From: Blastocatellia bacterium
GTDB lineage: Bacteria > Acidobacteriota > Blastocatellia > UBA7656 > JADIYM01
Length of the DNA: 64,000 bases
Direction: 5' to 3'
NCBI GenBank assembly: GCA_016705245.1
Contig: JADIYM010000003.1
Location: 420,148-484,147 of the forward strand
The translations under genes were made by a program, and so were the position numbers. The notes beneath the pieces were generated by a model. The model was given only the letters and a program-made list of their open reading frames with translations, made no database searches and was not told the DNA's origin. Shown here piece after piece: positions 9,721 to 60,055 of the stretch. How positions within the stretch are numbered: position 1 is the stretch's first letter; every line of letters starts with the position of its first letter.

Positions 9721-9852
9721 CCGTGCAATGCGCGAAGCGCTTTGGAGTGCGGCGTGAATCGCCGCTTTGGATTGTAATTTCGGGTTCCCGGAGAGTGGAA
9801 TCCAAAGCGGCGATTCACGCCGCACTCCAAGGCGCTCCGCGCAGTGCCGACG
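9721..9852. promoter_or_regulatory. Large hairpin (37-bp perfect arms, 25-nt loop, imperfect outer extension) between the PP2C gene end and the Mo-hydroxylase operon start
   Basis: GCGCTTTGGAGTGCGGCGTGAATCGCCGCTTTGGATT ... AATCCAAAGCGGCGATTCACGCCGCACTCCAAGGCGC; sits ~70 nt upstream of the small-subunit start. Confidence 0.5.
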
Positions 9853-13624: not shown

Positions 13625-13678
13625 GTCGTGATCATGCGCCGGAGAGCCTTGGCTGCATAGCTCCCATTGCAGCCCTGC

Positions 13679-13772
13679 GACTCTGCGTCTTCACTTTGCG
13701 TCTCTGCGAGAACCTCTTCTCCCGTGCGTGAGGGGGGGTTCTCGCAGAGACGCAAAGTGAAGACGCAGAGTC
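13679..13772. repeat. Family-A palindromic repeat, extended form (~36-bp perfect arms), copy A2
   Basis: GACTCTGCGTCTTCACTTTGCGTCTCTGCGAGAAC ... GTTCTCGCAGAGACGCAAAGTGAAGACGCAGAGTC. Confidence 0.8.
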
Positions 13773-13831
13773 GCATGAAAACTGGGGGTGGAATGGCTAC
13801 TTGATACCTCTCGCCATACGCTCGCACCTTT

Positions 13832-16954: not shown

Positions 16955-17252
16955 GCGCGTCAGTCTACCACCGCGTGCGAGGACTGTCGGCCCACCGCTC
17001 GAACTTCGTGCTTGACGCAACGGAGGACACGTCGTATTCTCCGACTTGGACAATTGTCCAAGTCGCTTAGTCGCGCCGGGCGTGGGCCGCGAGAATCCAC
17101 TGTCGGCCTCTCGGAGACTCGCCGCCCGCTCCCGACCGCGACCGATCTCACAGCCCGCTTCGGCGGGTGGCACTGCGCCGGCGATGAGGCAAACTGGCCC
17201 GGCGGCACCGCCTCCCGCTGAGGTTGGCTCGCTAAGAGTCAACAGATAAACA

Positions 17253-17350
17253 CTTTGCGTCTTTGCGTCTTCCTTTGCGCCTTTGCGAGAACCTCTTCTA
17301 GCCGTCAAGAAGTTCTCGCAAAGGCGCAAAGGAAGTCGCAAAGACGCAAG
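17253..17350. repeat. Family-A palindromic repeat, long nested form, copy A3
   Basis: CTTTGCGTCTTTGCGTCTTCCTTTGCGCCTTTGCGAGAAC...GTTCTCGCAAAGGCGCAAAGGAAGTCGCAAAGACGCAAG. Confidence 0.8.
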
Positions 17351-19537: not shown

Positions 19538-19630
19538 GGCGTCTCCTGTGGCGAAACTCGGCGTGAGTCGAACCGGGAACGTTAGCAGAGGATGCGCCCG
19601 GGTGGGAAAGTGGCCGGATTGGGGTGTCAA

Positions 19631-19757
19631 GAAGGCGTAGCCGTACAGAGAGCACAGAGTCACGGAGTGCACGGGCAGACAAACGGATCGTCTCTGTGTG
19701 CTTCGTGACTCTGTGCCCTCTGTCCGGCTACGCCTTCTTCCGGTCCCTGGCTACCGG
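19631..19757. repeat. Family-B palindromic repeat copy B1 (~31-bp arms CACAGAGTCACGGAG-type) plus a ~65-bp flank shared with copy B2
   Basis: GGCGTAGCCGTACAGAGAGCACAGAGTCACG ... CGTGACTCTGTGCCCTCTGTCCGGCTACGCC; flank CTTCTTCCGGTCCCTGGCTACCGG ~85% identical to 28518-28585. Confidence 0.8.
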
Positions 19758-23250: not shown

Positions 23251-26200
23251 ATGGCAAGCAACACACGCACACTGCTTTCCCTCGTGCTCGTTCTGTGCTG
23301 CGCCCCAGACGTAATCGGCCAGTCGAGCCCGGATGCCCAATCGTTCGGTCCCGAGAAACCCGTCGAGCGCGCTATATCCGGAGCCGAATCGCATACGTAC
23401 CGAGTCGCGCTGACGGCTGGCCAGTTCGTTCTGTTCCGTCTCGACCAGAGGTCCCTCGACTGTGGCCTCGTCCTGTCGGCGCCGGACGGCAAGCAACTCG
23501 CCGAGATGGACTTCACCGGCACCGGCGAACAGGAATCGCTCGCAATCGAGGCAGTCACCACCGGCGATCATCGGCTGACTGTGCAGAGCAATCCGGCGGC
23601 ATCGTGGCTCGGCTCATACCGGCTCGAAGCGACGATCCATACGCCGGCATCGGCATCGGATCGCAAGCAGCTGGTTGCGCAAGCCTGATGTTCGAGAGCG
23701 TGGCGCTCCGAAAGTCCGGCCCGGATGCGGCGACGCAGTCGATCGGGAAGCTCGAACAGGCGCTGGCGATCTGGCGCGAGTTGCAGGAGCCGTCGTGGAT
23801 CGCAGTCACGTTGGGCGCCATCGGAGACGTACTCTACGGCACCGGTCCGGACAAGGCGCTCGAGTACTACGAGCAGGCATTGGCATCTGCACGCGAGTCC
23901 AGATTGCGGGCACGCGAAGCCGCCGCGCTGAGTGCGCTGAGTGGGTTCTGCTACGGCACGCGCGAGTATGAAAAGTCGATCGAATACAGCGAACAGGCCC
24001 TGGTAATCCAGCGCGAACTGAATGATCGGGCTGGCGAGGGCATCACGCTCAACGACCTGGGCATAACGTACAACACGATGCGTCGCGCCGACCGGGCCAT
24101 CCCTTATTACGAGCAGGCGCTGGCGATCAAGCGAGAGCTGAAGGACCGATCCGGAGAAGGAGGCACGCTCGCCGATGTCGGTTGGTCATACCTTGGCGCG
24201 AGCCGGTCGCAGGAGGCGATCGCGAGTTTCGAACAGGCGCTTGCGATCTTCCGCGAACTGAATGACCGGAGCCGCCAGGAAAGCGCCTTGAGCGGCCTTG
24301 GTGTCACAAGTCAGTCGCTGAGCCGGTTCGAGAAGGCCATTGAGTACTTCGAGCAGGCCCTAGTGGTCCATCGCGAACTGAAATCTCGGAGCAAAGAGGC
24401 CGTCACGCTCGCCAGTATTGCGAATGCGTATTCCGCGCTGCGCCGCTACGACAAGTATTTCGAATATGCCGAGCAGGCGCTCGCCATCGCTCGCGAGACC
24501 AAGACCCGTTACGCGGAAGGTCGAACGCTCAGCGACATGGGCGGGGTCTATCTCACGATTGGCCGCTTCGACAAGGCAACCGAGCACCTTGAGCAGGCAC
24601 TGGTCATCAATCGCGAACAGAAGGACGTGATGGTGGAAGGCTTCACGCTCCGCTCGCTCGGAACGGTCTTCAACAAACAAGGCCAGCCGGCGAAGGCCCT
24701 CGAGCAATACGAGCAGGCCCTGGCCATCTTCCGTGCCGCGAAATCCCGGCCGCACGAGGGCGGCACGCTGAACATGCTGGCGCAGGTCAACCGGTCGCAA
24801 CGCCAGTTCGAGAAGGCGATCGAGAACTCGGAACAGTCGCTGGCAATTGCCCGTGAGGTGAAGAATCCAGAGTACGAGTTGAATGCCCTCACGACTCTGG
24901 CCTGGACCGAGAATGACCGTGGGAATCTTGCGGCGGCGCGCTCGCGCATCGAGGAAGGGTTGAACGTCGCCGAGTCGCTTCGGTCCGATCTCGTGAGCCC
25001 GGCTTCGCGCACGTCGCTACTGGCTTCCGTGCAGACTTCCTACCAGCTCTACACGGACATCCTGATGCGCCAGCACAAGGCGGATCCGTCGAAGCGACTC
25101 GACGAACTGGCGGTCGACGTCAGTGAGCGGCAGCGCGCCCGCAGCCTCCTCGATCTTCTCGTGGAGGCCGGCGCCGATTTCCGCAAGGGAGTGGATCCGG
25201 TGCTGCTCGAACGCGAGCAGAGCCTGGCCAGACAACTCAGCGAGAAGGCGCGTACGCCAACTGACACGCCCGAGAAAGCTGCCAGAGTGAAGCTCGAAAT
25301 CGGCCAGCTCGAGACCGAGCTCGAACGGGCACAGGTCGCGATCCGCAAGAACAACCCGCACTATGCGTCGCTCGTTCAGCCACAGCCGCTCAAACTGAGG
25401 GAAATCCAGGCGCTGCTCGATCCGGACACGCTGCTGCTCGAGTACGCGCTTGGGACGGACCGCAGCTACCTTTGGGCGATCACCAGGGATTCTCTCAAGA
25501 GCTACGAGTTGCCAAAGGGAGCGGATATCGAGAAGAGTGCGCTCGCCGTCTACGGATTGCTGAAGACGCGCAATGCCGATATCTCGACAGCTGCCAGCGC
25601 GCTCGCCCAGATGGTGCTCGCGCCGGTCGCGGCTGACCTCGGGACCAGGCGCGTGGTCGTGGTGGCCGACGGCGCGCTGCAATACATTCCGTTTGCGGTA
25701 TTGCCGGCTCCGGCCGTTGCGGATGGGCGTCCGCTCATCGTGGATCACGAGGTCGTGAGCCTTCCGTCGGCATCGGCGCTGGCAGTCCAGCGTGCGGAGC
25801 TTGCGGGCCGGCAGCCGGCTCCGAAGCTTCTGGCGGTCATCGCCGATCCTGTGTTCGATGCCACGGATACACGGGTGAAGGCGGTTGCGCGAAAGCCTGC
25901 GGAGAAGGACGACGTGCAGGTGATCGCGGCGAACGACGCGCGAACGATCGAGCACCTCGCCGAGAACTCGAAGGCCGGCGCCGTGACGAAGCGTGTCGTG
26001 ATCCCGCGGCTTCCCTTCACCCGGCAGGAAGCCACGCGGCTGATCGCGCTTGCGCCGCCGAATTCGAGTCTCGGTGCGGTCGATTTCAATGCGAGTCGCG
26101 AGGCGGTGCTCGGCGGTGATCTTTCCCAGTATCGGTACGTGCACTTTGCGACGCACGGACTGCTGGACAGCGAGCGACCGGGTCTGTCGTCGCTCGTGCT

Positions 26201-27572: not shown

Positions 27573-27610
27573 CGCCCGGCCGCGCACACACGCGACTGTA
27601 GAGCGGCAGA

Positions 27611-27985
27611 TTCCGCGACCGCGGACCGGTCAGTTCCGCGACCGCGGACCGGTCAATTCCGCGACCGCGGACCGGTCAACTCCGCGACCGCGGACCGGTC
27701 AACTCCGCGACCGCGGACCGGTCAACTCCGCGACCGCGGACCGGTCAACTCCGCGACCGCGGACCGGTCAACTCCGCGACCGCGGACCGGTCAACTCCGC
27801 GACCGCGGACCGGTCGATTCCGCGACCGCGGACCGGTCGATTCCGCGACTGCGGACCGGTCAACCTGGGCGACCGCGGAGCGGTCGATGAAGAAGCCTGG
27901 GTCGCGCGCGGGCGAGTGCAGCGAGCCCTCGCGTGACCCGCGGAACCGCCGGCCGCCACGCACCGACCGCGGAGCGGTCGCATCT
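27611..27985 (+). repeat. Tandem array of a 23-bp REP-like unit (about 12 good copies, then degenerate copies)
   Basis: Period 23 (starts at 27611, 27634, 27657, ...); unit contains the palindromes CCGCGG and GACCGGTC; no unique spacers, so not CRISPR. Confidence 0.85.
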
Positions 27986-28262
27986 TCAGTCCCAAAGATA
28001 ACGTGCGTCGCAGGCGACACCGTGCTCGTCGAGTAGTGAGACGAACTCCTCGTCGTAGGACACGCGCCGGTGGTGCTCCTTCTGTGCCGCGATGTAACGG
28101 CGCACGGCGGGCAATTCCGATCTTCCCACGGAGAACCCTCCGTATCCGTCCTGCCAGCTGAAGTCCCTCGAGACCGCCTCGTGGCGTTTCAGCCACGTCG
28201 TTCGCTCGATGCTTCGTCGGGAACACGATGTGCAGGTAGACCTCGATCAGTGTCCGTGCCAT
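27986..28262 (-). pseudogene. REP-associated tyrosine transposase (RAYT, IS200/IS605 TnpA-like) remnant, internally deleted and frameshifted
   Basis: N-terminus MARTLIEVYLHIVFPTKHR in one frame. C-terminus RDFSWQDGYGGFSVGRSELPAVRRYIAAQKEHHRRVSYDEEFVSLLDEHGVACDARYLWD in another. Only ~91 codons total versus ~150-170 for intact RAYTs. Confidence 0.7.
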
Positions 28263-28299
28263 GGGCCTTGCTCTCTTGGCCCATGATCGAAATCCGCAC

Positions 28300-28510
28300 G
28301 GCCTGAGTTGCTTCCCACTCGCAACAAGGCGACCGCCCGGCGGTCGCGCGTGGCTGGCGGCATGCGGGTCGCGCGCAGGCTCGCTGCACTCGCCCCCGCG
28401 CGACCCACGGCTATTTCATCGACCGCTCCGCGGTCGCGGAATTAACGCTCCACGATCGTGGAATTAACGCTCCGCGGTCGCGAATTACCGCTCCGCGGTC
28501 GCGGAATTCA
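28300..28510 (-). repeat. Right inverted terminal segment of the RAYT element plus 3-4 inverted copies of the 23-bp REP unit
   Basis: Reverse complement of 28300-28425 aligns with 27870-27985 (GGTCGATGAA...GGGTCGCGCG...GCGAGTGCAGCGAGCC...). Units GACCGCTCCGCGGTCGCGGAATT at 28421, 28466 and 28487. Confidence 0.7.
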
Positions 28511-28517
28511 CGCTCCG

Positions 28518-28580
28518 CTGTGTGCTTTGTGACTCCGTGCTCTCTGTGCGGCTACGCCTTCGTGCGGTCCCTAGCTACCG
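28518..28580. repeat. Family-B repeat copy B2 (half-palindrome plus shared flank, direct-repeat partner of B1 flank)
   Basis: TGTGTGCTTTGTGACTCCGTGCTCTCTGTGCGGCTACGCCTTCGTGCGGTCCCTAGCTACCGG vs 19690-19757. Confidence 0.7.
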
Positions 28581-28582
28581 GG

Positions 28583-29365
28583 TCAGCCGCACGCAGCCAT
28601 TCTCACGTCGATCAGGAATCGGTCGATCTCGGCGATATTGGGCGCCGCGTCCGGCAACGACGATCGCTCGTATGCACGCAGCATCTCGGCTTCCAGCATC
28701 GAGATCTTCTGGGCGTGTCGCTCGACTTCGTCACGCCCCATGGTCGTGCCATCGCCGGATCGCTTTCGCTCAATGAGGTCGGCAATCCCATCGACGTTGC
28801 GATCCGCGGCGAGCCGGGTCACGTTGCACTCCACCTCTCCAGTCGACATCAAGTGGATTCCCGTCAGAAGCACGCGATAGACATAGAGCAGCGTCTTTAC
28901 CCGCTTCGGCTCCTCGGACGTGAACGCCTTCCATCGTCCGCGGACGAAGCCACGATAGTGATGATAAAGCGTCCGGTTCACGAATCCGTGAGCGAGCGAG
29001 CGGAGTTGCTCGAACTCGGGCCGGGCGACGACGACGTGCGGTGACGTGATCTGTTCGAGGACGTAGCCGTTTTTTGCCACGAGCAACCGCAGGTACTTGC
29101 CGATGTCGTGCGAAAGCAGGTCGATCCGCATGCCGTCGACCGTATCGTCACGGTCGTGCGACTCGCGCGGCGGACGAAGCGAGATTACGGACTCGAGAGG
29201 AAGAACGTGGGCCCCCCGAATGTCCACGTCGCTCTCCGACGACGGAAATCCATAGAGGTGCGCGCCGCTGACTACGGCAAACAATGGAAGTGCTGGGCCG
29301 AGATCCGAGACGAGAGACGCCAGCCACGGAGCGTCTAGTGCGGCCGCATTCCTGCTCATTGACAA
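28583..29365 (-). CDS. nucleotidyltransferase-fold protein (GS...DxD NTase motif; DUF4037/KNTase-like)
   Basis: VVSGAHLYGFPSSESDVDIRGAHV matches the pol-beta-type NTase signature hG[GS]x9-13DxD; 260 aa; flanked on both sides by family-B repeats. Confidence 0.55.
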   Translation of the reverse strand: MSMSRNAAALDAPWLASLVSDLGPALPLFAVVSGAHLYGFPSSESDVDIRGAHVLPLESVISLRPPRESHDRDDTVDGMRIDLLSHDIGKYLRLLVAKNGYVLEQITSPHVVVARPEFEQLRSLAHGFVNRTLYHHYRGFVRGRWKAFTSEEPKRVKTLLYVYRVLLTGIHLMSTGEVECNVTRLAADRNVDGIADLIERKRSGDGTTMGRDEVERHAQKISMLEAEMLRAYERSSLPDAAPNIAEIDRFLIDVRMAACG

Positions 29366-29505
29366 CTCCAGCCCATGGCGTCGACCACGCCGTTCGGCGC
29401 CAGGGCACGGAAAATTCGGTTTACGTTCTGGAGAGCGGCATGAGCATACGCCTGGGGGAGTGGCCGCTCAAGCTCGCAGGATTGCGAGACGACTCGCCTC
29501 CGCGG

Positions 29506-29585
29506 CTCCGTGACTCCGTGTCTCTGTGTGCGCAGCTCTTCAGAGCGCTTCGCACACAGAGACACGGAGTCACGGAGTCACGGAG
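29506..29585. repeat. Family-B palindromic repeat copy B3
   Basis: CTCCGTGACTCCGTGTCTCTGTGTGCG ... CGCACACAGAGACACGGAGTCACGGAGTCACGGAG. Confidence 0.8.
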
Positions 29586-29593
29586 AGGACCCC

Positions 29594-34077: not shown

Positions 34078-34172
34078 GACTTCGTCTCGCGTCGACTCGG
34101 TCCTTTGCGAGAAACTCTTCGAGCCGTCGAAGAAGTTCTCGCAAAGGCGCAGAGGAAGACGCAAAGACGCAA
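34078..34172. repeat. Family-A palindromic repeat, degraded copy A4
   Basis: TTTGCGAGAAACTCTTCGA...TCGAAGAAGTTCTCGCAAAGGCGCAGAGGAAGACGCAAAGACGCAAG; outer left arm diverged. Confidence 0.7.
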
Positions 34173-34245
34173 GGTAAGCAGTGAGCCTGCACCATGTTCA
34201 GGATGCGAGTTGGACCGTCTTGACTCGGGCCGGTATTCTCCGACG

Positions 34246-36756: not shown

Positions 36757-37060
36757 CCGATCACTTCAGTGCGGCCAACGACGAGTCCGCGGTTTCAGCC
36801 ACCGTCCGTGGGACGCTCGCTACCGCTCGCGGCTCGACAAACGGGGACGGGAACGGCGGGCGGCCCCCGTTTTTTGAGCCGCGAGCGGTAGCGAGCGTCC
36901 CACGGACGGTCGACCGGTTCCGATCACTTCTGTCCTTCCGCAACGACGAGTCTGCGAGTTCACGCACCGTCCGTGGGACGCTCGCTACCGCTCGCGGCTC
37001 GAGAAACGGGGACGGGGGCGGGGACGGGGGCGGACGGAGCGTCCTGCCCCCCGCCAGTGG
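36757..37060. repeat. Complex repeat cluster (family D): two direct ~100-bp copies and an inverted partial copy forming a ~35-bp-stem hairpin with a nested GC hairpin
   Basis: ACCGTCCGTGGGACGCTCGCTACCGCTCGCGGCTCGA(C/G)AAACGGGGACGGG at 36800 and 36966; reverse complement at 36867-36912; CCGATCACTTC...CAACGACGAGTC also duplicated (36757/36917). Confidence 0.75.
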
Positions 37061-38176: not shown

Positions 38177-39267
38177 ATGACCGAGCCGCTCATCACGATC
38201 GACGACCTAAAGGTCCACTTCGACCTCTCGCACCGCGGCCTGATTGCCCGGGCGACAGGACGGGCAAAGGAGAAAATCGTGAAGGCCGTCGACGGCATCT
38301 CGCTCGAGATCCGCCGCGGCGAAACGCTCGGACTCGTCGGCGAGTCCGGCTGCGGCAAGTCGACCACTGGCCGCGCCATCCTCCAGCTGGTCCGCCCGAC
38401 GTCGGGACGGGTCATGTTCGCCGGCAGGAACCTTTCGGAAGTGAAGGACGGCGACATGAAGCCGTACCGGCGGCGCCTCCAGATGATCTTCCAGAATCCG
38501 TACGCATCGCTGAATCCGCGTATGACGGTCGGATCGATCATTGCCGAGCCCATCCGCAACTTCCGGATCAACCTCGGGGAGTCACAATCGGCGGCGCGCA
38601 CACAGGAGCTGATGCGCGTCGTCGGGCTCAACCCGCGATACGTCAAGCGTTATCCGCACGAGTTCTCAGGCGGACAGCGCCAGCGCATCGGCATCGCGCG
38701 CGCGCTCGCGGCCGACCCCGAGTTCATCGTCGCCGACGAGCCGATCTCGGCGCTCGACGTCTCTATTCAGGCGCAGATCATGAACCTGATGGAGGATCTG
38801 CAGGAGCAGTTCGGGCTGACGTACCTGTTCATTTCGCACGACCTGCGGGCCGTTCGACACGTCAGCGACCGCGTCGCCGTGATGTACCTCGGCAAGATCG
38901 CGGAGCTCGCGATCTCGAAGGACATTTACATCCGCCAGATTCACCCGTACACCGGGCGCTCATATCGGCGGTTCCGTCCCCGATCCGAAGGTAGAAGCAG
39001 CGGAAACGCATCGTGCTCCAGGGTGACGTGCCGTCGCCGATCAACCCGCCTCCGGGATGCCACTTCCACACGAGGTGTCCGTACGCGATCGCTGCGTGCG
39101 CGAGGATCGTTCCCGCGCTTCGCGAGATCCAGCCGGAGCACTTCGCGTCGTGCATCCGCGTATCGCCCGAATATCCCGACATCGATGCCGTCGCGAAGAT
39201 GCCGGGTGAGCGGCACTTTGGTGTCGAAGGAGTGGGAGCTTCGCACACAGAGACACGGGGACACTGA
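38177..39267 (+). CDS. oligopeptide/dipeptide ABC transporter ATP-binding protein (DppF/OppF-like), disrupted: frame change near 38953 and in-frame TAG at 38992-38994
   Basis: Intact through Walker [31 protein letters not shown]. Conserved continuation ALISAVPSP...[31 protein letters not shown] lies in the +1 frame, interrupted by a TAG. The last ~15 codons translate repeat B4. Confidence 0.7.
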
Positions 39268-39326
39268 GACACTGAGTCTGCTCATCTCAGTGACTCCGTG
39301 TCACCGAGCCTCTGTGTGCGAAGCTC
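39236..39326. repeat. Family-B palindromic repeat copy B4
   Basis: GAGCTTCGCACACAGAGACACGGGGACACTGAGACACTGAG...CTCAGTGACTCCGTGTCACCGAGCCTCTGTGTGCGAAGCTC. Confidence 0.8.
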
Positions 39327-39336
39327 TGCCTTCCCT

Positions 39337-44799: not shown

Positions 44800-44821
44800 G
44801 GTCGACGGGCCAGGTTGTTTC

Positions 44822-44896
44822 GCGCAAAGGCGCAAAGTACACCGGATTCACCGGCTATTTCACACCTGCAATTTTTGCCCTTTGCGCCTTTGCGCG
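44822..44896. repeat. Family-A palindromic repeat copy A5
   Basis: GCGCAAAGGCGCAAAG ... CTTTGCGCCTTTGCGCG, same arms as A1 with a different loop. Confidence 0.8.
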
Positions 44897-50850: not shown

Positions 50851-50996
50851 CTTCGTGCGGTGCAGGAGAGTGGACAGAATTCACGGGATTTGAAGAGGAT
50901 TGTCGGGACGGCTTGATTGAGGTTGTGGCGCGCTCGGATTCTCAACAAGCATTCCCTCGAATCCTCGGAAAATCCTGTCAATCCTGTCCACTCTCT

Positions 50997-51045
50997 CGCT
51001 TCGCACGCAGAGACACGTAGGCACAGAGTGGTGACGCAGCGAGGC
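50997..51045. repeat. Family-B repeat, partial/degenerate copy B5
   Basis: CGCTTCGCACGCAGAGACACGTAGGCACAGAGTGGTGACGCAG. Confidence 0.5.
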
Positions 51046-51613: not shown

Positions 51614-52880
51614 TTACCGGTGATTGTTGGCGTGCAGGATTCGCATCCGCAGCTTGCAGCCGGGCTCGAACGCGAAATGCGTCGACTGATCCGGCTGCTG
51701 CACAACTCCAACGACCGATCCGTGCGAACTGACGACCAGCCGCTTCGGTCCGACGATGCCCGGGCTCGCACCTTCGAAAAACTGTCCGTGGATCGTGATG
51801 TTCCCACCACCGGTGATCTGGCAGTCGACGAGGACGCCATCCTGCCCGACGACGAGTTCCGCGCCTTCACCAAGAGCGATCGAACACTGCTCGAAGCGGC
51901 TTTCGATCTCGACGTACGCCGACTGACCGAACTCGAGGTTCGCGTTTCGAAGCACGTCACCCTTTCCGAAGTAGCGCTTGATCCGGTCATCACCGCCACT
52001 GGCGGTCGCCGCGGCGACCGCTGCAGCCGCTGCCGCCTTGCCCGACAGCACCGCCGCAATCTGATCACCCGTAACCCGGACCGATCCGTCGCCGTCAGCG
52101 CTGTTGTCGACCCACTCGGCAATAACGCCTTCGACATCGCCGCCACCTGCCTCGATGCCGAACACCTTCGCGCCGGTCAGGATCGCGCCTGCGAGGCGTG
52201 TCCCGGAAATGGACGCCCGTCGAAGGTCGGCGCCCGTCAGGTCGGCTCGCGTGAGATCCGCCTTCGAGAGATCCGTCTTCGAAAGGTCAGCACCGGCGAG
52301 CTTGGCGCCGCGGCCGACGACGCCCGAGAGATTCGCGTCGGCAAGGATGGCCCCCGTCAGGTCCGCCTCCTCGATGTTCGCGCGCTCCACGTTCGAGCTC
52401 GTCAGGTTGATCTTCGACATCTTCGCGCCGCTCAGGTCGCACTCGACGAGGTCGGCATACGAAGCATCGGCGTCGCTCAGATCGGCTCCACCAAGCTTGG
52501 CTTCATCGATCTGGGCATACATGAGGTGCGCTCCGGAGAGGTTCGCACCTTCGAGATTGGCGCCCTCGAGGTTGGCGCGATTGAGTTTCGCGCCGGCCAG
52601 GATGGCCATCTCGAGGTTGGCTTCCTCGAGGTCGGCCTTCTCGAGGTTGGCTCCCGTCAGGTCCGCGCCAAGCATCTTAGGCCTCCCCCATGCTCGCGTT
52701 CGCCAGATTCGCCCCCTTGAGTTTCGCCTCCTCGAAGTTAACGCCTTCGAGATCCGTGCGACGGAGGTTCGCGCCTTCGAGGTTTGCCTTCGAAAGGTCG
52801 ACGCCCGAAAGGTCGGCACGTTCGAGGCTTTCGCCCTTCTGGACTTTCTCCAGAACTTCTTCTCTAGTGAAATCTGCCAT
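51614..52880 (-). CDS. pentapeptide-repeat protein (~420 aa), apparent frameshift near 52686
   Basis: More than 30 A(D/N)L(S/T)GA pentapeptide units. N-terminal 67 aa (from 52880, SD GGGGAGG upstream) are in a different frame from the body; the junction is at a C5/G5 run at 52686-52690. Confidence 0.75.
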
Positions 52881-55597: not shown

Positions 55598-55851
55598 ATC
55601 ACGACCGGCTCGGCCAAAAAAAACCTGAACCCCTCCGAGGCCCGTGTCGTAGTGTGCGCTGTTCACGTTCTTTCTGAATTTGCACTGGAGCCGAAATCCC
55701 GCTTGGGCGGGGTGCGGGGGAACCAACTTTTGGGGTGAATTCCGCGGAGGGCCGCGGATAGAGCATCTTCCAGCTCGAACCCGTCAGCTAACCTCGTAGG
55801 CTGGTGGAAGAGCCGTCTGTCAATGGGCGACTCCTGGACTTGCTGTGTCCC

Positions 55852-58414: not shown

Positions 58415-58512
58415 GAGAGCTTCGCACACAGGGACGCGGAGACATGGAGGCACGGAGAATCCTGGACTCCGTGCCTCCGTGTCTCAGTGTCTCTGTGTGC
58501 GAAGCTCTCCCT
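58415..58512. repeat. Family-B palindromic repeat copy B6
   Basis: GAGCTTCGCACACAGGGACGCGGAGACATGGAGGCACGGAG...CTCCGTGCCTCCGTGTCTCAGTGTCTCTGTGTGCGAAGCTC. Confidence 0.8.
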
Positions 58513-60055
58513 ACTGCGTCGCGCCGCAGAATCGGCAGAATCGCAACTGACCCTGCAGCGGGCGCCCGCAGTTCCGGCACTTCATGTGCGCGGGAAGGTC
58601 CGCACCCTGAGTCTGGGCGTATGAGCCGGCCGACGACGGAGGCTTCGAGACCACGGGTGGCTTCGGCGGCGGCGCCTTGACCTTCGAGTCCGACCGGAAC
58701 CCGAACTTCGCGAGCAGTCCTCCGCCCGCACTCTTGCGGATGTCTTCGGTGAGGCGTCTGATCTCGGCATTGATCGGCTCGATGCGCCTCGCCTCGTCGA
58801 GCAGATCTTCGGCCTCCTCATTCTTCCCCGCCTTGTGGTAGAGGCGCGCCAACTCGACGAGCGGCTTGATGCTTCTCGGATTCCGGTCGCTCGCCTGGCG
58901 CAGCACCTTGTCGGCCGATGCCATTCCGCCGGGCCGCTTAGCCAGCACGCGCGCGTACGCGACGAGCGTGTCGATGTCGTTCGGTTTCTGGGACAGCGCC
59001 GACTCGAAGCACTGAACCGCCGCGGCAAAGTTCCCCGCAGCCGCTTCGGATTCCCCCATCTGGATGTACGCGGAAGCCAGCAGCTTCAACCGGCCCGTAT
59101 CGCCCCTCGGCCTGGGGGCGGGATACTGCAACGGCGCCGAGTGGCCTCGCTGTACCGGCGCCGGCGGAACGTATGGCGCCGTCCCGTCGAATTCGCCCAT
59201 CGTGATCGGAGCGCCGGCGTGATCTTCGTCGGACTGCATGCTGGCCGCCATATGGATGGCCGCAGCCGCGGTTTCGGAATCCACGACGAAGCCGCTTTCC
59301 ACGGCTTCCTGCCGCTGCCGGAGCAACCGGTCAGTGTCCGAGACCCGCCGATCGTGGAATGGTTCGATGACCCCGGTCAGCCGCAATGCAACGAGCGCCT
59401 TCAGGACCTCGGCTTCGGGAATGCCGGTGACGATCAGCAGATCCTCGAGCTTTGCCTCGGCCGTGATCTGCGAGGCGACCAGACCGTCGAAGAAGCTCAA
59501 AGGAAGGGTCGTGAGCCGGCCGGTGAAGCCCTCGGCCGGAGCCGTGCACTGCGCAAGCGAGCCGACGAAGCTGCGTATGAGCCCCTCGTTCTCCATCCTG
59601 TGCACCGCCTCGAGGATGAGGTGGCTGACGTCGATGCGAATCGGAAGCGGATGTTCCGCCTGAATTCCACCCGTGAATTTCGCCGTCGCGTCAGACGTGT
59701 CGTATGCGCGGCCGAACACGTCGAAGGCATAGTCGGCCAGCCAGACGCGAACCGTCTCGGCATCGCGGAGGTTCTGTTCGAGCACGAGCGAGACGAGCGA
59801 CTTCTTGCGGGTGACCTCCTTCTCGAGCTGGAAAAGCACGAGCCGCTCGGCGGCGCTCTCGAAGCGGCCGGCGCGCGTGAAGTAGGCGGCGAGGCTCTCT
59901 TCCGGGGCGTCCGACACGACGTACACGAGCTCCCCTTCTTCGAAGAACGCCATGCGGAATCGGCCGTTCACGCTCAGCCGGAGCACGCCGGTTTTTCGAT
60001 GATCCGCGATGTCGTGCAGGGACTCAGAGAGTCCAACGACCGATGATTCGCTCAT
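58511..60055 (-). CDS. DUF4388-like N-terminal domain protein with TPR repeats, Pro-rich segment and C-terminal zinc ribbon
   Basis: Real start MSESSVVGL at 60055; the ORF table over-extends to 60655 through Arg-rich junk. N-terminus GLSESLHDIADHRKTGVLRLSVNGRFRMAFFEEGELVYVVSD; TPRs (AGNFAAAVQCFESALSQKPND...); CRNCGRPL...CRFCGA. Confidence 0.65.
   Translation of the reverse strand: MSESSVVGLSESLHDIADHRKTGVLRLSVNGRFRMAFFEEGELVYVVSDAPEESLAAYFTRAGRFESAAERLVLFQLEKEVTRKKSLVSLVLEQNLRDAETVRVWLADYAFDVFGRAYDTSDATAKFTGGIQAEHPLPIRIDVSHLILEAVHRMENEGLIRSFVGSLAQCTAPAEGFTGRLTTLPLSFFDGLVASQITAEAKLEDLLIVTGIPEAEVLKALVALRLTGVIEPFHDRRVSDTDRLLRQRQEAVESGFVVDSETAAAAIHMAASMQSDEDHAGAPITMGEFDGTAPYVPPAPVQRGHSAPLQYPAPRPRGDTGRLKLLASAYIQMGESEAAAGNFAAAVQCFESALSQKPNDIDTLVAYARVLAKRPGGMASADKVLRQASDRNPRSIKPLVELARLYHKAGKNEEAEDLLDEARRIEPINAEIRRLTEDIRKSAGGGLLAKFGFRSDSKVKAPPPKPPVVSKPPSSAGSYAQTQGADLPAHMKCRNCGRPLQGQLRFCRFCGATQ

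Follow-up and report, generated by a model that had tools for sequence, protein, structure and literature searches.

A locus within a 64,000-nucleotide stretch of Blastocatellia DNA (GenBank assembly GCA_016705245.1, contig JADIYM010000003.1, positions 420,148 to 484,147 of the forward strand; hereafter the window) carries the remnant of a Y1/HUH transposase gene, two inverted arms that enclose it and, outside the arms, two tandem arrays of a short hairpin of the repetitive extragenic palindromic (REP) type (Table 1). A first-pass annotation of the window had described the locus as a REPtron-like element, in which REP arrays in inverted orientation surround a degraded REP-associated tyrosine transposase (RAYT) gene.

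Table 1. Coordinates of the features of the locus and of two palindrome families in the window
Feature	Position	Strand	Description
Left (gene-distal) REP array, downstream of the pseudogene	27607-27868	+	11 head-to-tail 23-bp units
Downstream arm, REP sense on the + strand	27869-27985	+	inverted repeats I1, I2 and I25; three-hairpin fold
Y1/HUH transposase pseudogene (predicted TnpA-Y1 subclass 1.2, RAYT-like)	27986-28262	-	277 bp instead of 453 bp
Junction of the 176-bp deletion	28200-28202	-	between GCATCGAGCGA and ACGACGTGG; alignment to the intact L122 gene
Conserved leader	28260-28327	-	read directly from the sequence
Upstream arm, REP sense on the - strand	28328-28437	-	inverted-repeat search, alignment and fold
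Right (gene-distal) REP array, upstream of the pseudogene	28438-28518	-	~3.5 units of 22 bp, degenerate (+ strand sequence TTAACGCTCCGCGGTCGCGGAA); repeat families D3/D15
Family A palindromes	19628-19739, 29486-29589, 39225-39327, 50851-51010, 58415-58518; half copy 28518-28584		
Family B palindromes	832-926, 13676-13775, 17252-17349, 34102-34184, 44816-44838		

Tandem Repeats Finder (TRF) delimited the left array as 27607-27885 (period 23, 12.0 copies, 93% matches) and the right array, in reverse-complement orientation, as 28424-28518 (period 22, 4.4 copies, 85% matches). These results agree with the first-pass annotation, which had placed about 12 tandem copies at 27611-27875 and three to four reverse-complement units at 28421-28510. 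Each unit of the left array consists of ATTCCG or AACTCCG followed by CGACCGCGGACCGGTCA, a weakened variant of the canonical hairpin, and a repeat search recovered 11 of these variant 17-nt cores at a spacing of 23 nt (27616, 27639 ... 27846). The canonical core CGACCGCGGAGCGGTCG (7-bp stem, GGA loop) occurs at 27870 and 27964, as its reverse complement at 28420 and as a degenerate copy at 28330. The hairpin at 27870 is the twelfth of the left repeat block and closes it, the whole block spanning 27607-27886. When a 16-nt core, CGACCGCGGASCGGTC, was searched with up to two mismatches, 17 of its 18 matches in the window fell within the locus; 1.12 matches are expected in a shuffled window and none of 100 shuffles reached 18.

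The eight internal units of the left array are identical, all with a G-to-C change that weakens the hairpin, and the edge units are divergent. A single unit has a fold energy of -4.6 kcal/mol (z -0.7) against -8.5 kcal/mol (z -2.7) for the canonical REP, and the fold of a 94-nt segment taken from the array is much more stable than those of its shuffles (z -3.8). Within each unit lies a second, overlapping palindrome (TCCGCG..CGCGGA), which would favour slipped structures. The units are head-to-tail direct repeats and not inverted pairs of the kind found in REPINs (REP doublets forming hairpins), an arrangement for which the first-pass annotation had suggested looking. The array starts 35 nt past the stop codon of a DUF4384 gene and lies between this gene and a convergent RlaP gene. 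A CRISPR-like array was ruled out, as the units abut without spacers. A known RNA family was also ruled out at the locus, Rfam having returned only sub-threshold matches of microRNA models on the array (21-28 bits, gathering scores 50-168). Promoter and terminator scans of the region gave nothing exceeding shuffles.

Transposase remnant and its deletion

The N-terminus MARTLIEVYLHIVFPTKHRAN is read from an ATG at 28262 of the minus strand; the frame is then lost, and a second frame reads SIERTTWLKRHEAVSRDFSWQDGYGGFSVGRSELPAVRRYIAAQKEHHRRVSYDEEFVSLLDEHGVACDARYLWD (SIERTTWLKRHEAVSRDFSWQDGYGGFSV...ARYLWD*) up to a stop codon at 27986. The pseudogene comprises codons 1-21, a frameshift and then codons ~81-150 in another frame. 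Aligned with the intact gene of a relative (locus L122, protein P0005), it has a single 176-bp gap (alignment columns 155-330) by which codons 22-80 are gone; the junction shows a 2-nt AC microhomology and, as 176 leaves a remainder of 2 when divided by 3, the frame is shifted. An IS200-like transposase reduced to ~91 codons in two frames, with its catalytic middle deleted, had been read from the sequence at the outset, and one deletion accounts for that description. The HUH histidines H55 and H57 (H55-V-H57 in P0005), located by alignment to IS608 TnpA (PDB 2a6m), fall inside the deletion. The helix of the catalytic tyrosine (Y115, RRYIAAQ) is retained out of frame with the start codon, as part of the Y motif RRYIAAQKEHH, together with the C-terminal tail. 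A functional enzyme requires both the HUH motif and an in-frame catalytic tyrosine, and the window copy has neither; judged from its sequence, the transposase is dead, because the deletion removes the HUH metal-binding motif and shifts the frame.

The two terminal pieces, when joined, matched the Pfam profile PF01797 (Y1_Tnp) with 25.7 bits (E=1.3e-5) against a gathering cut-off of 23, over profile positions 89-121 only, and the retained C-terminal piece alone scored 21.8 bits, under the cut-off. A protein search returned 43 homologues, of which the intact 150-aa ones are 90-93% identical over the retained C-terminus; the intact 150-aa relatives are 79-93% identical. Several intact homologues were named 'REP element-mobilizing transposase RayT' by the Joint Genome Institute (JGI) and PF01797 was precomputed on intact relatives, while the NCBI annotation of the homologues reads 'IS200/IS605 family transposase'. 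The closest solved structure was IS608 TnpA (E=1.5e-4). No second Y1 gene was found in the window by tblastn with four family members, which matched the remnant alone.

Ahead of the gene, the leader forms a stem of CATGGGCC (28285-28278) and GGCCCATG (28267-28260) around the loop AAGAGAGCAA; the loop holds a Shine-Dalgarno-like AAGAGAG, and the stem includes the ATG. The same stem-loop is kept in L122 (2712-2737), L203-L207 and L208, and its position over the start codon recalls the translational occlusion described for IS200 tnpA.

The deletion is also present in a second genome. A 1.16-Mb contig of the Blastocatellia metagenome-assembled genome (MAG) GCA_016704725.1 (locus L121) encodes a 74-aa 'hypothetical protein' (P0007), shares with the window the gene order purS, purQ, RlaP, remnant, DUF4384 and CHAT/tetratricopeptide repeat (TPR) gene, and is 98.6% identical to it over 15.4 kb; hence, the two genomes are conspecific. 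The deletion junction is identical in both and therefore the deletion predates their split, and the 176-bp gap, being shared by two independent assemblies, is unlikely to be an assembly artefact. The array of L121 has one extra 21-nt unit relative to the window. In the retained reading frame, the two differ by two non-synonymous and one synonymous changes, a pattern that a decaying element would show. Each also has a private hairpin lesion in the upstream arm, namely a loop change of the inner REP in the window and a 4-nt deletion in the outer REP in L121. Since the deletion, arm lesions have accumulated independently in each of the conspecific genomes.

Inverted arms at the locus and in relatives

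The two arms pair over 44 nt (27898-27941 with 28364-28407, 91% complementary) and 29 nt (27869-27897 with 28409-28437, 93%), and a further pairing of 17 nt (27964-27980 with 28420-28436) is 100% complementary. Inverted flanks of ~115 bp had been proposed at 27870-27985 and 28300-28425; this alignment upholds both arms and the start of the first, and moves the start at 28300, which was set ~25 nt too far left. In order, the downstream arm consists of the outer REP hairpin (27870-27886, CGACCGC-GGA-GCGGTCG), the linker GATGAAGAAGCC, in which the ATAG tag of the family is mutated to GAAG, a long central hairpin (27899-27939), a spacer and the inner REP (27964-27980), and it ends 5 nt from the pseudogene stop codon. 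The upstream arm has the outer REP at 28420-28436, the linker GATGAAATAGCC, the central hairpin at 28366-28406 with ATAG kept before it, a spacer and the inner REP at 28330-28346, the loop of which reads CCGGG in the window instead of the GGA that is kept in L121. Both window arms fall into one column-by-column alignment with those of 31 further loci.

The same architecture occurs around intact genes. At L122, where the gene sits between sulfatase genes, a nine-unit array of a 22-bp REP is followed by the upstream arm, composed of outer REP, linker GATGAAATAGCC, long hairpin, spacer and inner REP, then by a leader of ~85 nt and the gene; an inverted arm begins 5 nt after the stop codon, and degenerate units follow. 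L203 has an intact gene, a six-unit array and both arms. At L208, in the Blastocatellia MAG DTUACD2 (GCA_021463145.1), three 23-nt tandem REPs connect two upstream arms arranged in tandem, and the intact gene P0046 and a downstream arm follow. Both the HUH and the Tyr motifs are present in P0005 and P0046. The REPtron arrangement claimed for the window is thus repeated at these three loci in the order array, arm, gene, inverted arm, array.

More distant relatives were collected by a metagenome scan with the protein alignment, which yielded at least 80 loci at 40-54% protein identity, with no close relatives among the matches listed. Sixty-seven of these loci, with flanks of 150 bp or more on either side, were tested for inverted arms, a score of at least twice the best of 20 shuffles being the criterion. 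Arms were found at 56 of the 67 (median length 86 nt) and in 40 of the 56 they begin at most 30 nt from the stop codon. The distant arms have little common sequence and one common design. Sixty-four arms, those of the window among them, were aligned with MAFFT to derive an RNAalifold consensus, and partner columns slid by 1-2 positions served as the control. The three hairpins align column by column across the 64 arms; standard pairs fill 92.3% of the stem cells against 40-50% in the slid controls, and double changes fill 267 cells against 33-43, with covariation in all three hairpins. The loops are G-N-A in 52/64 outer and 61/64 inner hairpins. A conserved [A/G]TAGCC precedes the long hairpin (ATAG is commonest; GTAG occurs in 13 of the 64 arms), and the small G-N-A hairpins are without this tag. 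G·T pairs outnumber A·C pairs in the alignment by 43 to 23. From these asymmetries of loop, tag and G·T/A·C pairs, the arm appears to be read as a structure in one sense, carried by opposite strands on the two sides of the gene. Beyond the Blastocatellia clade, few loci have tandem arrays; besides L122, TRF detected them at 6 of the 80 distant loci.

A genome collection was also scanned with CGACCGCGGASCGGTC, which gave at least 120 stretches, most of them single matches to high-GC actinomycetes that are attributable to chance; the DTUACD2 loci were among the matches listed. In this genome, five other contigs carry gene-less arm copies, at least seven in all, that are 84-96% identical to the arms flanking P0046 and devoid of Y1 coding sequence. 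A RAYT and its non-autonomous repeats would be expected to occur in this way, as an intact gene together with gene-less arms, and the pattern was found in a related genome. Several of the gene-less copies are pairs of inverted inner REPs 55-145 nt apart, on several contigs of a genome with one intact gene; they are REPIN-like (Bertels and Rainey 2011) or MITE-like (miniature inverted-repeat transposable element) derivatives. They differ from REPINs in that they also carry the long central hairpin arm, often on a single side, and no REPIN-like doublet lies outside the cassette in the window. Two of the DTUACD2 elements (L010 1241-1383 and L082 5360-5498) have a common non-coding interior of ~145 nt in opposite orientation on two contigs. 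At L091, two copies of a different 55-nt interior lie ~600 bp apart inside a nested repeat region.

Gene decay has recurred among the relatives. Two metagenomic loci, L209 and L210, have each undergone an independent internal deletion of their own and keep the C-terminus alone. At L209 the deletion joins the upstream arm, directly past ATAGCC, to codon ~97; at L210 it joins the leader to almost that codon. The 3' breakpoints of both are immediately 5' of a perfect intragenic hairpin, ACGGAG-GGTT-CTCCGT (~225-245 in L209, ~1140-1160 in L210), which may mark a site prone to deletion or serve the enzyme as a pseudo-substrate. P0001 shows an apparent compensated frameshift across the HUH region. 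In the window, the intragenic hairpin lies at 28131-28146 and encodes YGGFSV. Some of the distant relatives have another, partial Y1 copy no more than 2.5 kb from their intact gene: in L124 (2590-2697) it is a C-terminal fragment directly upstream of that gene, and in L147 (93-446) a 43%-identical paralogue encoded on the opposite strand.

Classification and interpretation

Intact relatives are 150 aa long and carry NHVH, DHVH or DHIH, followed by WQ, YI..QKEHH and a conserved ~30-aa tail; WQDGYG, YIAAQKEHH and the tail, as RRVSYDEEFVSLLDEHGVACDARYLWD, survive in the remnant. On motifs alone, the protein is assigned to TnpA-Y1 subclass 1.2 (Y-x3-Q-x2-HH). This subclass has been described as ~148 aa long, with Y-x3-Q-x2-HH, WQ, [DN]H[IV]H and a conserved ~30-aa C-terminal tail, low in copy number (1.7 per genome, with paralogues only 36% identical) and listed as 'REP: no', without REP-like or terminal secondary structures (Quentin 2018, PMC6006769). 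The present proteins resemble it in length, motifs, tail and low copy number; they differ in coming from Acidobacteria and soil metagenomes and in the structured inverted arms at 56/67 loci. These arms, with covariation in three hairpins, contradict the published description of the subclass and not the membership. No later description of TnpA-Y1 subclass 1.2 was found in a literature search.

Two known systems resemble the cassette. REPtrons of E. coli (yafM), Stenotrophomonas and Marinomonas (Ton-Hoang 2012; Corneloup 2021, PMC8266576) also have one small Y1/HUH gene bracketed by inverted palindromic repeats, as found at the window, L122, L203, L208 and the 56 distant loci. The TnpA-REP proteins of these three bacteria bind single-stranded REP and not its complement and cleave beside the REP, a 5' GTAG tetranucleotide serving as guide, and in Marinomonas the REPs cluster beside the gene (PMC8266576). 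At the hairpin foot, the present family has a sense-specific tetranucleotide that may correspond to the REPtron tag ([A/G]TAG in place of GTAG; against the 5' GT[AG]G of REPtrons, the window tags read ATAG in the upstream and GAAG in the downstream arm). It shares with REPtrons gene-less repeat copies elsewhere in the related genome DTUACD2 and, with the Marinomonas REPtron, the concentration of repeats beside the gene. It differs in the protein, which is of class 1.2 (Y-x3-Q-x2-HH) instead of class 2 (Y-x3-NP), in flanks that are composite three-hairpin arms of ~90-115 nt and not simple REPs or BIMEs (bacterial interspersed mosaic elements), in outer REPs that form head-to-tail arrays and not alternating or inverted pairs, and in that a dispersed high-copy REP family is not visible in the 64-kb window. 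TIRtrons, with their terminal inverted repeat-associated transposases (TIRYTs), likewise have a RAYT-like Y1 gene within long terminal inverted repeats that can also disperse as a repeat family, and a well-defined TIRYT group has been described in Acidobacteria (Di Nocera 2013, PMC3733652). TIRYTs are mostly of subclass 2.1, with ~238 aa, a C-terminal helix-turn-helix (HTH) and GGGG[AT][CG]A[CG] repeats (Quentin 2018, PMC6006769). The window has the long inverted arms, in this case hairpin-built, and a different protein type, of 150 aa without an HTH.

We conclude with high confidence that the locus is the fossil of a REPtron-like cassette. Such a cassette consists of a ~150-codon gene for a single-domain Y1/HUH single-stranded DNA (ssDNA) transposase of subclass 1.2 between two inverted ~115-bp arms, each formed by a small G-N-A-triloop hairpin, an [A/G]TAG-tagged long central hairpin and a second small hairpin; the small hairpin, or REP, has been amplified outside the arms into head-to-tail arrays. 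In live relatives the enzyme probably binds folded ssDNA hairpins in one sense only, by analogy with IS608 TnpA and E. coli TnpA-REP, and the bound sense would lie on opposite strands at the two ends of the cassette. It would cut and rejoin beside the hairpins, seeding local copies and gene-less arm elements, with [A/G]TAG and the long hairpin as the likely equivalent of the tagged REP. Both this binding and cleavage and the mode of array growth are inferred; what the sequences show is the anatomy, the homology and the deletion, arms that are conserved and covary, and dispersed arms beside an intact gene in DTUACD2. A single 176-bp deletion with AC microhomology killed the enzyme before the conspecific genomes split.

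Several points weigh against this interpretation. The window and all 19 aligned relatives have Y-I-A-x-Q-K-E-H-H, and the class-2 RAYT signature Y-x3-N-P (PMC6006769; Bertels groups 1-5) is absent, so the protein is not a RAYT in the strict sense; of the original RAYT call, the Y1/HUH transposase stands, by the PF01797 match and the RayT-named homologues, and the class-2 assignment gives way to subclass 1.2. The E. coli RAYT structure gave no match at E<1 and was ruled out as the closest structure, IS608 TnpA being nearer by sequence. Recognition of hairpins by subclass 1.2 proteins would follow by analogy only. The upstream arm is absent from the close relatives L204-L207, hence the symmetrical architecture is not obligatory. 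Searches with the REP, the long hairpin and the whole arm found no copies outside the locus in 63 kb of the window. Furthermore, the close relatives occupy at least five different gene neighbourhoods, so the cassette has moved or been lost many times, and this variety suits movement of a whole cassette in the manner of an insertion sequence (IS) better than a strictly domesticated single-copy RAYT.

An alternative origin of the array itself is doubtful, and the strongest of the rival explanations. The 23-bp array may be a minisatellite grown by slippage from one hairpin, without any role of the transposase; if the host retains it at all, this may be because it serves to end or stabilise the convergent DUF4384 and RlaP transcripts, for instance. 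The identity of the eight internal units, with their common G-to-C change, beside differing edge units would suit this origin, as would the one-unit difference between the conspecific genomes despite a dead gene, the position shortly past the DUF4384 stop codon between convergent genes and the z of -3.8 for the 94-nt stretch. Since the internal units are identical, the edges divergent and the copy number changed after gene death, array copy number is now most probably driven by replication slippage or unequal exchange, whether or not the enzyme once seeded the array. However, arrays of the same REP also flank the intact genes of L122, L203 and L208, so that in this clade the cassette itself is prone to form arrays. 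Few of the more distant relatives have arrays, and as for a host function, the hairpins have no terminator-like T-tract and the two terminator-like matches in the region are no more than in shuffles. This explanation concerns how the array grew and not what the locus is, and is compatible with a REPtron-like fossil.

We consider it improbable, more so than slippage as the origin of the array, that the remnant was left by an ordinary autonomous insertion sequence of the IS200 type, mobile as a whole and with the flanking repeats as its ends. By motif, the protein is predicted to be class 1 (IS200-like), its best alignment is with IS608 TnpA and NCBI names its homologues accordingly; the core of arm, gene and arm measures ~700 bp, the size of IS200, and close relatives occur in the several genomic contexts noted above. 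Further likenesses to the IS200/IS605 group (IS200, IS608, ISDra2) are the common Y1/HUH core, the nearest solved structures and the leader stem-loop over the start codon, as reported for IS200. Against it stands the form of the ends. IS200/IS605 elements have asymmetric left-end and right-end (LE/RE) hairpins in the same sense on one strand, without inverted repeats, whereas the ends here are inverted copies, with the G-N-A loops and the [A/G]TAG tag on opposite strands. The low copy number and divergent paralogues of subclass 1.2 (PMC6006769) are unlike IS copies, the element is without tnpB, and it was not seen as multiple near-identical copies, the window having a single one. In DTUACD2, it is the arms and not the gene that have multiplied.

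That the truncated gene is alive, its C-terminal ~74 residues (Tyr helix and subclass tail) being expressed as a small DNA-binding or regulatory protein, is very improbable: both conspecific genomes have 92 open codons in the C-terminal frame, NCBI calls P0007 from it and at least two other independent deletions (L209, L210) keep just this part, but the conserved ATG and Shine-Dalgarno feed the wrong frame, the 74-aa call requires a non-canonical start, the two non-synonymous differences to one synonymous give no sign of purifying selection, the retained piece alone stays under the Pfam cut-off and the C-terminus may survive simply because it adjoins the downstream arm.

The locus alone, as a REPtron-like fossil, is an ordinary one, a decayed selfish or domesticated element without obvious host effect, and E. 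coli strains that lost a RAYT through deletion have been described before (PMC3733652). What was not expected is the subclass and its conserved three-hairpin arm, to which the locus gives an entry point: a subclass recorded as repeat-less turns out to be bracketed by a covarying three-hairpin arm, and it can give both tandem REP arrays and dispersed gene-less elements. The arm is a concrete DNA substrate for the biochemistry of an uncharacterised branch of single-strand transposases, and the REP/RAYT phenomenon is extended to Acidobacteria. The relatives also form a natural series of intact genes (L122, L203, L208), three independent deletions (window/L121, L209, L210) and gene-less arms (DTUACD2), which can be used to ask how long REP-type repeats last and how they change after the enzyme is lost.

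A broader proposal, on which we are close to evenly divided and lean slightly towards doubt, is that subclass 1.2 proteins, so far recorded as an uncharacterised, REP-less side branch of the IS200 transposases, are the core of their own widespread REPtron- or TIRtron-like system, defined by the conserved composite arm of ~90-115 nt, to which Blastocatellia add tandem amplification of REPs, dispersed gene-less arms and repeated gene death by internal deletion. If so, the arm would be kept by compensatory changes across soil and sediment bacteria, inverted directly against both gene ends, and the window would hold the fossil of a family with hitherto undescribed DNA substrates.

Other repeats and features of the window

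The window contains further palindromic repeats. Family A comprises near-perfect hairpins of ~100 nt built of 8-nt periodic units of the CACGGAGT/CACAGAGA type, with 5-6 copies in 64 kb. Its half copy consists of the right half only and directly adjoins the right REP array, and L209 and L210 have sequences similar to Family A closely upstream of their arrays. When the sequence left of 27607 was read by eye, without alignment, no convincing match to the missing left half was found, and an insertion of the cassette into a Family A palindrome is therefore not shown. Family B comprises long hairpins of periodic TTTGCGCC / AAGGCGCAAAGG units, with 4-5 copies in the window. A further palindromic element at 36776-37021 has three 46-nt arms (ACCGTCCGTGGGACGCTCGCTACCGCTCGCGGCTCGA...) that are 96% complementary and matches L121 1202-1467, and a separate hairpin with 60-nt arms lies at 9725-9847. 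The first-pass annotation had suggested that the palindrome families of this genome depend on the RAYT, either as now non-autonomous repeats or through an intact copy elsewhere; a link of families A, B and C to this transposase was ruled out as unsupported, their sequences having no similarity to the REP or the arms.

Two coding repeats are ordinary protein repeats, namely a 15-nt periodic, pentapeptide-repeat-like sequence at 52283-52835 and the 120-nt TPR repeats at 23737-24865 inside the CHAT-domain gene. The only Rfam family over threshold in the window was the cyclic di-AMP (c-di-AMP) riboswitch (ydaO/yuaA leader, RF00379), which was detected at 55679-55817 on the + strand with 91 bits against a gathering score of 38.

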